Notes: a model not told the origin generated them from the sequence alone. A stretch of 64,000 nucleotides of DNA from Verrucomicrobiota bacterium (GCA_039797095.1 JBDKIN010000202.1:2729-66728), one strand, 5' to 3'; counted from the first letter of the stretch, positions 38,164-44,439 are shown. Made by a program: numbers and translations.

Positions 38164-38273
38164 GGGGCTAGACCCACCTTTGCCTTAATTTTCCCCGCTG
38201 GCGAGGGCATTTCCCCTGACGCCAAGGCTTGATTTCCGCCTCGGGCCGCCCATGTTCTTCCTTCCTCTGCGCC

Positions 38274-38349
38274 GCCACCTTAGCTCAGCTGGTAGAGCAT
38301 CTCATTCGTAATGAGAATGTCGCCGGTTCAAATCCGGCAGGTGGCTCCA
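38274..38349 (+). tRNA. tRNA-Thr (anticodon CGT)
   Basis: Manual cloverleaf: acceptor GCCACCT/AGGTGGC, D arm GCTC-AGCTGGTA-GAGC, anticodon arm TCTCA-TTCGTAA-TGAGA. T arm GCCGG-TTCAAAT-CCGGC, encoded CCA. Confidence 0.92.
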
Positions 38350-38411
38350 GCGCAGGGGGCTTTTTCGTCCGACCGTTTGCCCGTCCGGACTTTTCTTCCA
38401 CCCTCCACGTC

Positions 38412-39371
<960 letters not shown>

Positions 39372-39421
39372 TCGGCTGACGGCTTGCCTGCTCAGGGTGG
39401 CCGTCTTACGGTCACTTTCAC

Positions 39422-39499
39422 GAGGGGGTAGCTCAGTTGGATCAGAGCAGCAGCCTTCTAAGCTGCGGGTCGCGGGTTCGAGTCCCGCCCTCCTCACCA
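39422..39499 (+). tRNA. tRNA-Arg (anticodon TCT)
   Basis: Manual cloverleaf: acceptor GAGGGGG/CCTCCTC (one GU pair), D arm GCTC-AGTTGGATCA-GAGC, anticodon arm GCAGC-CTTCTAA-GCTGC. T arm GCGGG-TTCGAGT-CCCGC, encoded CCA. Confidence 0.9.
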
Positions 39500-39511
39500 C
39501 TTTTCGCCGTC

Positions 39512-40354
39512 ATGTCCGCCGCCCCTTACCATCTCGCGGATCGCGAGGTCGGCGTCGGCGTCCTGAGCGCACTGGAAGTCGAAGCGGGTCTAGCCACCGG
39601 GCGCCTCTCCGCGGCGACCCTCTCTTGGCGCGAAGGCGAGGCCGCCTGGATGCCGCTGGGCGCGCGTCCGGAATTCGCGTCCGCGGTCGGGGCCTTCCGC
39701 ACGCTCGTGCCTCCGCCGGCGCTCGCTTTCGACGCATCATCCGAGCCGTGGCCAGGTTGGGTGGCTTGGGCGCAGACCATGCGTGCGATTTGGCGCGCGC
39801 CGCGCAGCGTTTTCCGACCTACGACGGAAACTGCCGGCCTAGGGCGATCCGTCGAGTGGTTGGCCATCTCCGCATTCCTGGTCGCCCCGTTCCTTTACGC
39901 GCAGCTGGCTTACACGGGCGGAGTGGCGTCAGAAATCCTCCTCTGGTCGGCCTCGGATAATCCCGTTGTTCCGCCCACTCGGCTGGACCTCGGACGCTTC
40001 GCCGCGTTCCTCGTGGGATTCCCTCTCGTCATGCCCGCCGCGGCCTTCGGAGGCGCGTGCCTCATGCATGCCGTGCTCGTCATGTTCGGCGGAGGCAAGG
40101 CAGGCCTGCGCGTGACCTTCCGCCTCGTGGCCTACGTCGGAGGCGCGATGCTGATGCCGGCGATCGTCCCATGCGGCTGGTTGCTCTCGCCTTTGCTGAC
40201 CGTCGCCTACTTGTCGGTGGCTCTGCCGACGGCCCACCGCGAATCCGCTTGGAAACCCATCCTGGCCTTGGCGGTCGCGGGCTTCGGCGCTGGCTGCGTG
40301 GCCGTGGCCTTCATGGCCCTGGCGATCTGGCCCTTCTTCCGGCCGATGGGCTGA
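39512..40354 (+). CDS. GYF_2 (DUF4339)-like N-terminal domain + Yip1-like multi-pass membrane protein, paralog 1
   Basis: Internal ATG 39512, 13 nt after tRNA-Arg. N-terminus ...LSWREGEAAWMPLGARPEF matches the GYF_2 pattern. About 5 TM helices. Confidence 0.6.
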   Translation: MSAAPYHLADREVGVGVLSALEVEAGLATGRLSAATLSWREGEAAWMPLGARPEFASAVGAFRTLVPPPALAFDASSEPWPGWVAWAQTMRAIWRAPRSVFRPTTETAGLGRSVEWLAISAFLVAPFLYAQLAYTGGVASEILLWSASDNPVVPPTRLDLGRFAAFLVGFPLVMPAAAFGGACLMHAVLVMFGGGKAGLRVTFRLVAYVGGAMLMPAIVPCGWLLSPLLTVAYLSVALPTAHRESAWKPILALAVAGFGAGCVAVAFMALAIWPFFRPMG

Positions 40355-40400
40355 GCGGGGCTAGGCTTGCGAGGGAGGTCGCTCCGCCTATCAAAGACCT

Positions 40401-40571
40401 ATGCAGATTCACGTCGCCCGTCACCAACAGCAGCTCGGGGTCTTCGCCGCCGCGGACATCCTCGCCGGCTTGTCTTCCGGCCGCTTCCTTCCCTCCGACC
40501 TCGCCTGGCGCGAGGGCATGGCCGTGTGGACGCCCCTCGGCGACTGGGCCGAGTTCCGCGGCGCCGGCGTA
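40401..40571 (+). repeat. Approx 171-nt direct repeat copy 1 (second copy 41256..41426), the GYF-domain-coding 5' ends of paralogs 2 and 3
   Basis: Nucleotide-level similarity is visible by eye across the first 57 codons of both genes. Confidence 0.75.
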
Positions 40572-41249
40572 CCGCCTTCTCCTTCCGGTCTTGCGCAGCC
40601 TGCGGACGCCCCTGCCATGCCGTCCTGGGAGCGTGGTGCCTCGTTGGGCAACTTCATCGCGACCATCAAGGAGGTCGCCCTCGATCCGGTACGGACCTTC
40701 GCGAACCTGCGCGACGGTGGCTACGCCCGCCCGATCTCCTTTACCTATTGGTCGCTGCTGCCGGCCTGGCTCTGCGGCAGCCTGCTCTACGGCGCGCTCT
40801 TCGGCTTCATGGCGACGGTGGGCGCCGCCGCTTTGCCCCGCGCCGACGATCCTTTTTCGACTTGGATCGCCGGCGTCGGTCCGCTCGTGGCCGCCTTGGC
40901 GATCTCCGCTTTCCTGGGCGTATTCTTCCTTTTCGTGCCTCTCTTCAATTTCGTCGGCGCCGGCATCACCTACCTGCTGCTGCTGCCTTGGGGTCCCTCC
41001 GGCGGCTACGCGCAGACCTATCGCGCCAATGCTTACGCCTATGGGGCGTTCATGCCCTTCGCCTTCATCCCTTGCCTCAATTACGTCGCCATGCCGTGGC
41101 AGCTGGTGGCGGCCATCATCGCCCATTCGCAGGTCCACCGGATCGCTTGGTGGAAGGTCACGATCTCGCTCGTCGTGATCCCTTGCCTTTGCGTCTGCGG
41201 AATCTATGCGATGTTGTTCGCGGTCGTCGCCAAGAACTTCGCGGGCTGA
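40401..41249 (+). CDS. GYF_2 (DUF4339)-like + Yip1-like membrane protein, paralog 2
   Basis: MQIHVARHQQQLGVF...LAWREGMAVWTPLGDWAEFRGAG, followed by a multi-pass membrane domain. Confidence 0.65.
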   Translation: MQIHVARHQQQLGVFAAADILAGLSSGRFLPSDLAWREGMAVWTPLGDWAEFRGAGVPPSPSGLAQPADAPAMPSWERGASLGNFIATIKEVALDPVRTFANLRDGGYARPISFTYWSLLPAWLCGSLLYGALFGFMATVGAAALPRADDPFSTWIAGVGPLVAALAISAFLGVFFLFVPLFNFVGAGITYLLLLPWGPSGGYAQTYRANAYAYGAFMPFAFIPCLNYVAMPWQLVAAIIAHSQVHRIAWWKVTISLVVIPCLCVCGIYAMLFAVVAKNFAG

Positions 41250-41255
41250 TTTTCC

Positions 41256-42140
41256 ATGCAGATCCACGTCGCCCGCAATTCCGCCCAGCTCGGAGTCTTC
41301 TCCTCGGAAGAGGTCGGCGCCGGCCTCTCCTCCGGCCGCTTCCTCGCCTCCGACCTCGCTTGGCGCGACGGCATGGCCGCATGGACGCCGCTCGGCGACT
41401 GGCCGGAGTTCCGCGGTGCGGGCGTGACGTCTTCGCCGGGAGAGATTTCCGCGCCTGCGTCGGCCGCTTCGCCGATCCCTTGGGAGCAGGGCAAATCCCT
41501 GGGAGCTTTCTTCGCGACGATCAAGCATGTGGTCTCAAGCCCGTCTTCGCTCGCCTCCGGCCGATTCGCCTTCGGGGATTGGCTGACCTTCTGCTACGTC
41601 GGCATCCTGTTTTCCTTGCCGTTCCAGTTGTTCGCCCTGCTGGCCTACGGCGACAAGAACGTCCAGGTCGGCCAGTTCCTCGAGCGCCTGAATATCCCGG
41701 GGCTGAACGAGGTCGCCCAGCAGATGATCCAAGCTCCGCCCGCGCCGGTCGCCTTCACGCTCATCGGCGCGGTCATCGGCCTCGCCTTCGCGCCGCTCAT
41801 CTACGCTTTCATGGGCGTCCTCCATTGGCTGGGTCAGCGTGTCTTCCGCTATCAGGTGCCGCTCGAGCGGACGGTGGCCATCTCCCTGCTGACGACTGCC
41901 GCGGTCGTCGTGCTGACGGCCCCGCTCCAGTTCCTCGGCTTCAGCCTCGTCACGCAGATGAGCGTCACCTTCGTGACCTTCGTGCCTGTGTGCGTGATCT
42001 ATTTCCGCGCCCTCGGCGCCGCCACGGGCATCAATCCATGGGCCCAGTTCGGCATCTCCTGCTTCGTGTGGTCCGTGGTGTGCGGTTGTTGCTGCTTCCT
42101 TCCGGGCATCCTTCTCTGGGCTGCGGCGGTCACGCGCTGA
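41256..42140 (+). CDS. GYF_2 (DUF4339)-like + Yip1-like membrane protein, paralog 3
   Basis: MQIHVARNSAQLGVF...LAWRDGMAAWTPLGDWPEFRGAG, then a multi-pass membrane domain and a Cys-rich C-terminus (CGCCCF). Confidence 0.65.
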   Translation: MQIHVARNSAQLGVFSSEEVGAGLSSGRFLASDLAWRDGMAAWTPLGDWPEFRGAGVTSSPGEISAPASAASPIPWEQGKSLGAFFATIKHVVSSPSSLASGRFAFGDWLTFCYVGILFSLPFQLFALLAYGDKNVQVGQFLERLNIPGLNEVAQQMIQAPPAPVAFTLIGAVIGLAFAPLIYAFMGVLHWLGQRVFRYQVPLERTVAISLLTTAAVVVLTAPLQFLGFSLVTQMSVTFVTFVPVCVIYFRALGAATGINPWAQFGISCFVWSVVCGCCCFLPGILLWAAAVTR

Positions 42141-42143
42141 TCG

Positions 42144-42566
42144 GTGTTCCGGCTGATCCGCAGACCTGCCTATCCGGGCGAGCTCAACCACGAGCTCGTC
42201 TGGCCGGCCGTGTTCCTGTCCGGCGCGGTCTTCGCCTGGGGTTGGTTCCTGTCCGGGTTGCAGCTGCCGCAATGCTTCTTCATCCGCCTGACCGGGCTGC
42301 CTTGCCTGGGCTGCGGCGGCACGCGCTGCGCCCGCAATCTGGTGAACCTGGATTTCGGCCAGGCCTTCCTCTATCACCCCGGCTTCTTCTTGGTCGTCCT
42401 GCTGGCGTCCTTGTGGACGATCTACGCCGGACTCTTCTGGATTCGCCGAGATACGCTGCGGCTCCGCTTCTTCGTCGAGCCGACGCAGGTCCGCCGGTTC
42501 CGGGTGATGCTCATCCTCCTGCTTGCGGCCCACTGGGCCTGGCAGTGCTATTACCTGACGCGCTGA
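42144..42566 (+). CDS. DUF2752 domain-containing membrane protein
   Basis: GTG start 3 nt after the upstream stop. Hallmark LTGLPCLGCGGTRC motif, followed by TM helices. Confidence 0.8.
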   Translation: MFRLIRRPAYPGELNHELVWPAVFLSGAVFAWGWFLSGLQLPQCFFIRLTGLPCLGCGGTRCARNLVNLDFGQAFLYHPGFFLVVLLASLWTIYAGLFWIRRDTLRLRFFVEPTQVRRFRVMLILLLAAHWAWQCYYLTR

Positions 42567-42567
42567 G

Positions 42568-43515
42568 ATGATCCGCAACCTGCTCCGCTTCCTCGGCTGG
42601 GTCTGCCTGCTTGTCCTGCTCGCGTCGGGCATCCTCGCGCTGGTCTACTTCCTCTCGGAGCGTCCGCAGAAGGTCGCCATCGAGCAACGCGTGCTCGACG
42701 CCGTGGATACGGTGCGCGAGGACGGCACGACCCCGCGCAAGGTCGTCGATGTGCTGGATCGCTTCGCCGACCAGACCGTGGCCGTACGTGGCGACGTCGT
42801 CCTGGCGCCGCCGCCGGACTTGGCGGCCACCGCGCCCTACGGCGAGCCGACCGACCGATTCGGCCTGAAGCGCCTGCCGAATCGCGGCTACACGGTCGGT
42901 TACGATGACGGCCTACCGGCGCCGCGCTGGTCTTCCTATCGCGTCTTCCCCTTCAAGGACGTCCATCTCGAGCGGCCTTCCTCTTTCAAGTCCGACGTGC
43001 GCACCGCGGCACGTGTCACGACCTCGGAATACGTCCGTTCGGGCTTCGACCGCGGACATCTCGCGCCGAACTACGCGATCTCGGTCTGCTATGGCGAAGA
43101 GGCGCAGAAGGAGACTTTCCTCCTCAGCAATATCGTCCCGCAGCTGCACGCGCTCAACGCCGGCCTCTGGAAGGACATGGAGCAGCGCATCATGAAGCGG
43201 TATGTCGAGCGCTACGGCACCGTCTGGGTGCAGGTCGGGCCCGTCTTCGCCTCGCCCGCCGCGCAGAAGGTCGGCCGAGTCCCGGTGCCGACGTCTTTCT
43301 GGATGGTGATCTCCGATTACGACGAAGCCGTGGGCGGGATCCGCGCCATCGCCTATCTCGTCCCGCACGAGGAGAAGTGGCGCGATGCCGAGCTCACGCG
43401 CTATGTCGTCAGCATCCGCCGCGTGGAGGAGCTCACCGGCCTGGACTTCTTCCCGAAGCTGCCGCGGCCCGCGCAGGATCGTCTTGAATCAACGCCCGCG
43501 CCGCGCGCCTGGTGA
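42568..43515 (+). CDS. DNA/RNA non-specific endonuclease (NucA/EndoG beta-beta-alpha-Me family), membrane-anchored or exported
   Basis: N-terminal TM/signal helix. Catalytic DRGHLAPN motif and a downstream Asn (LSNIVPQ). Confidence 0.88.
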   Translation: MIRNLLRFLGWVCLLVLLASGILALVYFLSERPQKVAIEQRVLDAVDTVREDGTTPRKVVDVLDRFADQTVAVRGDVVLAPPPDLAATAPYGEPTDRFGLKRLPNRGYTVGYDDGLPAPRWSSYRVFPFKDVHLERPSSFKSDVRTAARVTTSEYVRSGFDRGHLAPNYAISVCYGEEAQKETFLLSNIVPQLHALNAGLWKDMEQRIMKRYVERYGTVWVQVGPVFASPAAQKVGRVPVPTSFWMVISDYDEAVGGIRAIAYLVPHEEKWRDAELTRYVVSIRRVEELTGLDFFPKLPRPAQDRLESTPAPRAW

Positions 43516-44439
43516 CGGCAGTTCGCGGCGGAGGTCCGCGGCGTGGATCAGGCAGACGCAGTCGGAACCGTCGGCCGTGGGCAGCCACATGATCGGCAGC
43601 TTGGGCCACGCCTGATGCATCGCCTTCTGCAAGCCCCCGACCTCGATGACGAGGATACCGTGCGGCTTCAGGGCTTCGCGCGCCTGGGTGAGCAGCTTGC
43701 GGATGACGTCGAGCCCGTCCTTGCCGGAGACCAGCGAGCCTTTCGGCTCCTTCTTGAATTCGGCGGGCAGGCGGCGGTAGATGCCTTCGGGTTCGTAAGG
43801 CGGGTTGCTGAGGATCAGGTCGAACTTCGGCCCCTTGGTGAGCGTCGTCATCGTGTCCGTCTCGTGCAGGGTGATCCGCTTGACGAGCCGGTGGTCGGCG
43901 ACGTTCAAGGCCGCGACCTCGAGGGCCTGCGCCGAAAGGTCGGTGGCGTGCACATGGGCCTTCGGGAAGCGCTTGGCGAGCAGGATGGCGAGGCAGCCCG
44001 AGCCCGTGCAGACGTCGGCGACGTCGGTCACCTGCGCGACGGGGGGCAGCCACTGCGGGATGGCTTCGGGGATGAGCTCGACAAAATACGAGCGCGGGAT
44101 GATCACGCGTTCGTCGACGCGGAAGCGGAGGCCGCCGAGCCACGTCTCGCCGACGAGGTAGCCGGTGGGCACGCGGTCAAAGACGCGGCGCTCGACGAGC
44201 GCGAGGAACGCGGCCTTCTCCTTGGCCGTCAGGGGGCGTTCGAAGCACGAGGGCAGCTGCTCCCAGGCCAGGCCCGTGGCGTGGCCCATGAGGGTGAGGG
44301 ATTCCTCCTCGGCGTTGACGAAGCCTTGGCCGTGCGCGACGCCGGCCGACTTGAAGAGCCGGTTGGCATGGCGTAAACAATCACCGCCCGTTCTGAGGCG
44401 GGCGGTGGCGGCGGGAGTCGGGCGCGGCGGGGCGCTCAT
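43489..44439 (-). CDS. prmB: HemK-family protein-(glutamine-N5) methyltransferase, PrmB (ribosomal protein L3)-like
   Basis: SAM motif DVCTGSGCLAI, NPPY motif LSNPPYEP, and FRVDERVIIPRSYFVELI typical of PrmB. 3' end overlaps the convergent nuclease gene by 27 nt. Confidence 0.65.
   Translation of the reverse strand: MSAPPRPTPAATARLRTGGDCLRHANRLFKSAGVAHGQGFVNAEEESLTLMGHATGLAWEQLPSCFERPLTAKEKAAFLALVERRVFDRVPTGYLVGETWLGGLRFRVDERVIIPRSYFVELIPEAIPQWLPPVAQVTDVADVCTGSGCLAILLAKRFPKAHVHATDLSAQALEVAALNVADHRLVKRITLHETDTMTTLTKGPKFDLILSNPPYEPEGIYRRLPAEFKKEPKGSLVSGKDGLDVIRKLLTQAREALKPHGILVIEVGGLQKAMHQAWPKLPIMWLPTADGSDCVCLIHAADLRRELPSPGARRGR

Follow-up and report, generated by a model that had tools for sequence, protein, structure and literature searches.

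Tandem GYF-headed membrane genes, DUF2752, and a tethered nuclease in a freshwater Opitutales genome: a recurrent membrane gene pair with a probably incidental neighbour

The five genes and their products

A stretch of 64,000 nucleotides (hereafter the window) from a Verrucomicrobiota bacterium (GCA_039797095.1, JBDKIN010000202.1:2729-66728) was analysed with regard to a cluster of five open reading frames (ORFs) lying head to tail on the plus strand between positions 39512 and 43515. The source genome is a freshwater Opitutales metagenome-assembled genome (MAG) with a size of 1.88 Mb and a completeness of 87%. The cluster encodes three paralogous membrane proteins with N-terminal GYF heads, a DUF2752 protein, and a membrane-anchored nuclease, and the co-directional ORFs and successive gaps of 46, 6, 3, and 1 nt given in an earlier note on this DNA were recovered with the same coordinates. 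The first four genes are a local, tandemly expanded, Yip1-like variant of a widespread and uncharacterised membrane gene pair; the nuclease is phyletically independent of this GYF/DUF2752 pair and adjoins it in this one genus only.

In the product of each of the first three genes, a proline-rich linker joins a cytoplasmic GYF_2 head to a Yip1-like polytopic domain in the membrane. GYF paralog 1 (39512..40354, 280 amino acids (aa), type A in the trees described below) was delimited from its ORF, Pfam, a family hidden Markov model (HMM), and trees, GYF paralog 2 (40401..41249, 282 aa, type B) from Pfam, AlphaFold2, and Foldseek, and GYF paralog 3 (41256..42140, 294 aa, type C), which has a diverged membrane domain, from Pfam, the family HMM, and a tree. 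The Pfam gathering cut-offs were 25.8 bits for GYF_2 (DUF4339, PF14237), 28.6 for Yip1 (PF04893), 27 for DUF2752 (PF10825), and 23 for Endonuclease_NS (PF01223). The GYF_2 heads of paralogs 2 and 3 scored 33.9 and 38.0 bits, and that of paralog 1 was marginal (23.2 bits, 25.7 in a whole-genome scan, and 25.9 with neighbours in frame). The Yip1 profile was matched by paralog 2 alone, over positions 3-170 of 173 and at a sub-threshold 27.0 bits, and paralogs 1 and 3 gave no match to it at E<=0.01. Kinship with Yip1 is plausible even at these sub-threshold values, since a PF04893 match has been precomputed for many of the close homologs. Paralogs 2 and 3 align end to end with paralog 1 at 22-32% identity, and an HMM of the membrane domain, built from 117 full-length relatives, matches all three proteins with E-values from 4e-15 to 1e-45 (1.9e-23 for paralog 1 and 4e-15 for paralog 3). 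The end-to-end alignment and the common HMM thus sustain the paralogy proposed in the earlier note, and its domain assignments hold above the cut-off for GYF_2 in paralogs 2 and 3, marginally for GYF_2 in paralog 1, and below the cut-off for Yip1. When compared to the Yip1 family, which comprises the eukaryotic Yip1/YIPF Golgi proteins and bacterial homologs, the paralogs share a polytopic domain of approximately 170-200 aa, but they differ in these missing or sub-threshold matches, and there is no hint of Rab or vesicle biology at the locus. The full-length GYF plus Yip1-like family, taken as the relatives of paralog 2 at E<=1e-10, comprises 226 clusters at 50% identity.

The AlphaFold2 model of paralog 2 (mean pLDDT 78) consists of an N-terminal beta/alpha domain followed by five to six long helices. 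Residues 1-55 were modelled with a pLDDT of 85-91, while residues 58-67 form the disordered proline-rich linker that follows the GYF head in each paralog. A Foldseek search against the PDB returned the GYF domain of GltJ (7z3c, probability 1.0) as the best match, followed by the eukaryotic GYF domains of GIGYF2 and Smy2, and gave no meaningful PDB match for the membrane domain. Like GltJ, a component of the gliding machinery of Myxococcus xanthus, the window paralogs have a cytoplasmic N-terminal GYF domain connected to a membrane module by a flexible linker. Unlike GltJ, they bear neither a zinc ribbon nor a TonB-like or periplasmic part, they are not accompanied by Glt/Agl, MglA, or AglZ genes, and the NCBIfam GltJ model covers only the GYF segment of the window protein, at 17.9 bits against a cut-off of 450. 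Attia et al. (2024, PMC11135422) describe binding of a proline-rich segment of AglZ by the GltJ GYF domain through a beta-sheet, propose signalling across the membrane, and survey the general architecture of an N-terminal GYF domain joined to a membrane module in bacteria; their description covers the architecture of genes 1 to 3 and does not name DUF2752 or the nuclease. A fourth GYF_2 protein is encoded elsewhere in the genome (G000, contig C31, L003:3-635, minus strand); its C-terminal region looks soluble, its gene is truncated at the end of the contig, and no DUF2752 gene adjoins it.

The fourth gene (42144..42566, 140 aa, GTG start) encodes a DUF2752 protein, identified by Pfam at 49.8 bits and modelled with AlphaFold2. 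The CxxCGGTR-type motif noticed earlier is part of a cysteine triad, C44-x9-C54-x2-C57-G-x-T-R, in which C44, C54, G56, C57, G58, and R61 do not vary among 68 sequences drawn from many phyla. The model (pLDDT 77.9) shows three long transmembrane (TM) helices, with the triad located in the TM1-TM2 loop and surrounded by short helices, and Foldseek returned zero PDB fold matches for it. Lysine and arginine residues are concentrated at the N-terminus and in the TM2-TM3 loop but sparse in the cysteine loop, so by the positive-inside rule this loop probably faces the periplasm. Additionally, the DUF2752 proteins of the genus carry an N-terminal extension, M-x-R-x-x-RRP-x-[YF]-x-GE (RRPAYPGE in the window), which is absent from the DUF2752 proteins of other lineages. 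The extension, a conserved peptide to which the GYF heads might dock, spans residues 1-17 (42144-42200), is predicted to be cytoplasmic, and is also present in L039 and L042, two other loci of the collection. The literature searched yielded no mention of DUF2752, and no bacterial papers were found there for DUF4339/PF14237 or for the combination of CD225, DUF4190, and TM2.

The fifth gene (42568..43515, 315 aa) encodes the membrane-anchored beta-beta-alpha-Me nuclease, identified by Pfam (Endonuclease_NS, 134.3 bits) and by alignment. It aligns to EXOG, EndoG, NucA, and the Serratia nuclease, with conservation of the DRGH histidine, the SNIVPQ asparagine, and the downstream N..W...E motif; in the alignment with EXOG, its DRGHLAP segment is paired with SRGHMAP, and the two proteins share an identical LSNIVPQ. 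Together with a single N-terminal hydrophobic anchor, these features agree with the earlier description of a TM-anchored nuclease with a DRGHLAPN motif, and the protein, the sole Endonuclease_NS copy in the genome, reads as a predicted active, exported, and membrane-tethered enzyme. The family also includes Anabaena NucA with its inhibitor NuiA, the mitochondrial nucleases EndoG and EXOG, and EndA of Streptococcus pneumoniae, and a membrane-tethered Endonuclease_NS enzyme is the design of EndA. The tethering of the window nuclease resembles EndA and EXOG, but it differs from these relatives in a linker of approximately 65 aa between the anchor and the catalytic domain and, as read from its sequence, in a single cysteine in the mature part, which leaves it without the disulfides of the Serratia type. 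A search for NuiA (PF07924) in the 87%-complete genome gave no match, and the family matched no control genome either.

A membrane gene pair across phyla

In the Verrucomicrobiota, 86 of the 201 genomes sampled contained DUF2752, which was rare in the rest of the order. Its neighbourhood was compared across 80 DUF2752 loci, a broad sample that spans at least 10 phyla (Lentisphaerae, Planctomycetes, Verrucomicrobia, Acidobacteria, Firmicutes, Actinobacteria, Bacteroidetes, Proteobacteria, Nitrospirae, and Ignavibacteria), was drawn with a five-sequence alignment, and is biased towards the CPGCG[GNS][TA][RH] motif; 78 of these loci entered the neighbour tallies. A co-directional neighbour was present upstream of DUF2752 in 67 loci compared with 42 downstream, and a small membrane protein occupied the upstream position in 44 loci compared with 13-23 at the other neighbouring positions. 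The upstream genes corresponded to CD225 (17), Zn_Ribbon_1 (17), DZR (13), GYF_2 (12), and TM2 (7), and more rarely to DUF4190 (5), RDD (3), DUF2510 (2), and DUF4234 (2). With a custom GYF HMM, same-strand GYF-headed ORFs were detected in approximately 20 of the 80 loci, mostly directly before DUF2752, and their membrane parts belonged to DUF4190 or DUF4234 or were unassigned. Tandem GYF arrays occurred in a Bifidobacteriaceae MAG, in Acidobacteria, and in Verrucomicrobia. The array of the Bifidobacteriaceae MAG (L115:500-3048), in which three tandem GYF-headed membrane genes precede DUF2752, has the design of the window array in a distant phylum.

Closer to the window, the sister genus (G233, L081:5270-6396) bears two tandem CD225 (IFITM-like) genes followed by DUF2752 and prfB, and in another family of the order a GYF_2 plus CD225-like gene is followed by DUF2752 and an ArnT-like gene. 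Full-length GYF plus Yip1-like proteins directly before DUF2752 were identified in four further Verrucomicrobiota genomes from three families (G044, G087, G337, and G118), all of families or classes other than that of the window genome. Considering all eight GYF plus Yip1-like members detected outside the genus and within the phylum, DUF2752 was immediately downstream in four and not in the other four, two of which belong to 0.9-Mb genomes. The four out-of-genus pairs surfaced only through searches with the protein itself; when the window's Yip1-like domain was compared by phmmer and the family HMM with the 80 broad loci and with 30 DUF2752 loci from the phylum, no match was obtained outside the genus. 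A GYF-headed membrane protein followed by DUF2752 is a real, recurrent, cross-phylum gene pair, so that the linkage anticipated in the earlier note held up in the neighbourhood check that it proposed, and the window shows the same arrangement of a head-plus-membrane protein and DUF2752, co-directional and 3 nt apart. The pairs of DUF2752 with CD225 (bacterial dispanin/IFITM-like) or other GYF-headed proteins are alike in having a head-plus-membrane protein, often in tandem, with DUF2752 co-directional and last. They differ from the window in their two-TM CD225 or DUF4190 domains, in place of which the window has a polytopic Yip1-like domain of approximately 200 aa, and in that the window has a nuclease gene downstream.

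Two 0.9-Mb genomes of the same class, G128 (locus L171) and G152 (locus L172), retain a full-length GYF plus Yip1-like gene; DUF2752 was found neither within 1.5 kb of it nor genome-wide. Given these reduced genomes, the GYF plus Yip1-like protein may matter on its own. We also considered that DUF2752 might act on an intramembrane Cys-Cys of its partners, in a manner resembling the palmitoylation of IFITM proteins. Such a Cys-Cys was present in 21 of 50 upstream membrane proteins, mostly of the CD225 and DUF4190 types, and the idea was dropped as a general explanation, the TM2-, DUF4234-, and many of the GYF-type partners being without it.

The number of GYF paralogs varies from one to five among the species of the genus: a single copy was found in L038, L039, and L040, two copies in L037, L042, L043, and L049, three in the window, L036, and L083, and five in L044 (L044:1254-5876). 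The tree of the membrane domains resolved three well-supported ortholog types, A, B, and C, to which window paralogs 1, 2, and 3 correspond. Type A always comes first in the array and forms a separate clade in both the membrane-domain and the GYF-domain trees, and the sole copy retained in single-copy species is of type B or type C. Unlike the membrane domains, the GYF heads of types B and C group by genome, as with paralogs 2 to 5 of L044 (99/98 support), paralogs 1 and 2 of L049 (95/86), and paralogs 2 and 3 of L036, which fall with window paralog 2. An AU test on the GYF data rejected the monophyly of type C as defined by the membrane domains (p=0.0003). At the nucleotide level, a repeat search in the window found a direct repeat of 152 nt on the plus strand, with one copy in the GYF-coding 5' part of paralog 2 (40431..40582) and the other in that of paralog 3 (41286..41437), at 82% identity. 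The discordant trees, the AU test, and this repeat show that gene conversion has homogenised the 5' GYF-coding segments, whereas the membrane domains have diverged.

The nuclease within and outside the genus

Within the genus, the nuclease was present in 22 of the 24 other species-level genomes, with identities down to 62%, and every contig of sufficient length carried the order folE2, one to five GYF paralogs, DUF2752, nuclease, prmB, and accC. Outside the genus, the two parts were found separately. Endonuclease_NS was not among the families downstream of DUF2752, and phmmer searches with the window nuclease found it in none of the 80 broad loci and in none of the eight out-of-genus GYF plus Yip1-like loci. 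Likewise, four out-of-genus nuclease orthologs, with 36-42% identity and also anchored at the N-terminus, had no GYF or DUF2752 neighbours (0/4), being located next to unrelated genes such as those encoding a UvrD-like helicase or a lipoamide dehydrogenase. The nuclease occurred without detectable DUF2752 in G035 (98% complete, two contigs) and G038 (95% complete), and in G029, G030, and the sister genus G233 the nuclease and DUF2752 genes lay on different contigs. Conversely, the membrane pair was present without Endonuclease_NS in G044, G087, and G337, which are 98-100% complete. The earlier proposal of one envelope module is therefore retained for genes 1 to 4, as a recurrent pair, and not for the nuclease, for which there was no recurrent linkage outside the genus. 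Since the nuclease is unlinked there and the parts occur independently, the idea that genes 1 to 4 serve the export or regulation of the nuclease, as had been suggested, or immunity to it is unsupported, though such a role may exist within this genus.

Regarding the surroundings, the cluster follows the gene for tRNA-Arg(TCT) (39422..39499, plus strand; ARAGORN and sequence reading), as had been noted, with 12 nt between it and the first ATG. With a gap of just 12 nt, there is no room for a separate promoter between the tRNA gene and paralog 1. The upstream neighbours are an APH-type kinase gene (minus strand), tRNA-Thr, and folE2, and the downstream neighbours are prmB, accC, and accB. The genes for tRNA-Thr(CGT) and tRNA-Arg(TCT) flank folE2 on the same strand (38274-39499), and the GYF operon may share the folE2/tRNA promoter and be freed by tRNA processing. 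Downstream, the convergent prmB gene (43489..44439, minus strand; L3 glutamine methyltransferase, NCBIfam TIGR03533, 298 bits) overlaps the nuclease gene by 27 nt at the prmB 3' end, which sets the downstream boundary of the cluster. A scan of 38200-43800 was uninformative: it returned zero promoter-like sites, and terminator-like sites occurred about as often as expected by chance. Gaps of 10 nt or less separate 14 of the 35 pairs of co-directional neighbours in the window, the median gap being 20 nt by crude gene calls; because short gaps are this common, the tight spacing of the five genes carries little weight. The GC content across the locus is flat (0.64-0.68), giving no hint of an island.

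A two-part composite and its alternatives

We consider it probable that the cluster is a two-part composite, in which the membrane pair and the nuclease stand side by side incidentally or are merely co-expressed, the nuclease serving nucleic-acid salvage. A function shared by the nuclease and the membrane pair is unproven and looks unlikely. In this composite, the products of genes 1 to 4 would form one inner-membrane complex, following a module design of at least one small polytopic protein with a cytoplasmic docking head (GYF_2 here; elsewhere a zinc ribbon or none) and with DUF2752 last. By analogy with the binding of AglZ by the GltJ GYF domain, the GYF heads might bring in a cytoplasmic partner rich in proline or bind the proline-rich linkers of one another. 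DUF2752 would be the unchanging partner in the membrane, its cysteine-triad loop lying in the periplasm. The nuclease is predicted to be a non-specific DNA/RNA endonuclease, tethered to the inner membrane and facing the periplasm, where it would most likely degrade nucleic acids for nucleotide and phosphate salvage in a freshwater bacterium with a small genome. Because it would be exported as made, it should need no cytoplasmic inhibitor. Its gene would have landed behind DUF2752 in the ancestor of the genus and is probably co-transcribed with the upstream genes, the membrane module and the nuclease not being mutually dependent.

Several points weigh against this composite. In about a dozen species of the genus, the DUF2752 and nuclease genes invariably overlap or stand 0-4 nt apart, even with both proteins diverged down to 51-62% identity; a junction this constant is compatible with selection for co-expression. 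If periplasmic, the cysteine loop of DUF2752 shares one side of the membrane with the nuclease domain. Furthermore, it is gene order that suggests DUF2752 as a partner in the complex, the neighbour tallies depend on heuristic ORF calls in unannotated contigs, and the genomes of one genus are non-independent samples.

One alternative is that the GYF paralogs and DUF2752 are a dedicated apparatus for inserting, holding inactive, positioning, or regulating the tethered nuclease, the five genes being one genus-specific envelope module, which we regard as unlikely. The gene order and the short junction kept across the genus speak for it, but tight spacing is the norm in this compact genome. The search that gave no NuiA-type match, in this genome or in the controls, also counts in its favour, but an exported nuclease requires no inhibitor. 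The shared membrane side of the cysteine loop and the nuclease domain, as well as the genus-specific N-terminal extension of DUF2752 (RRPAYPGE...), would also fit. Against this stands the independent occurrence of the parts: anchored nuclease orthologs of the same type lack these neighbours, including in genomes without detectable DUF2752, the pair is present without any Endonuclease_NS, and no locus of the broad sample links both. In a narrower version, which appears somewhat more doubtful still, the GYF-membrane/DUF2752 module would have been recruited in this genus to control the nuclease, with the cysteine loop docking or gating the enzyme and the GYF heads relaying a cytoplasmic signal.

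An EndA-like role in natural transformation, in which the nuclease at the inner membrane would process incoming DNA on behalf of ComEC, with the membrane module as an accessory, is improbable. The tethered design is that of EndA and the genome encodes ComEC, but comEC and comEA lie on another contig and are unlinked to the nuclease, ComEC is nearly universal (matched in 10 of 14 control genomes), and no competence regulator was seen. Least credible is an anti-phage or inter-bacterial competition system with the membrane proteins as sensors and the nuclease as effector: the nuclease does adjoin membrane proteins whose copy number differs between species, but the five proteins gave no match to a PADLOC-DB v2 defence model at E<=0.01, mobility genes are absent, the nuclease domain is predicted to face outwards and not the cytoplasm, and the locus is fixed in core synteny from folE2/tRNA-Arg to prmB/accC, with flat GC and no island.

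The main result is thus one of caution, the linkage of the nuclease being lineage-specific and probably incidental. At the same time, the genus with the co-located nuclease is a cheap place to test a functional link, and nuclease control, if true, would provide the first way into the function of DUF2752 and of GYF-headed membrane proteins in bacteria. DUF2752 with an upstream partner of the GYF, zinc-ribbon, or CD225 type ranks among the more widespread membrane gene pairs of unknown function. The locus shows that this partner can be a Yip1-like polytopic protein and that the partner genes expand and contract between one and five copies with their GYF heads kept alike, an argument that every copy has to bind one and the same ligand in the cytoplasm.

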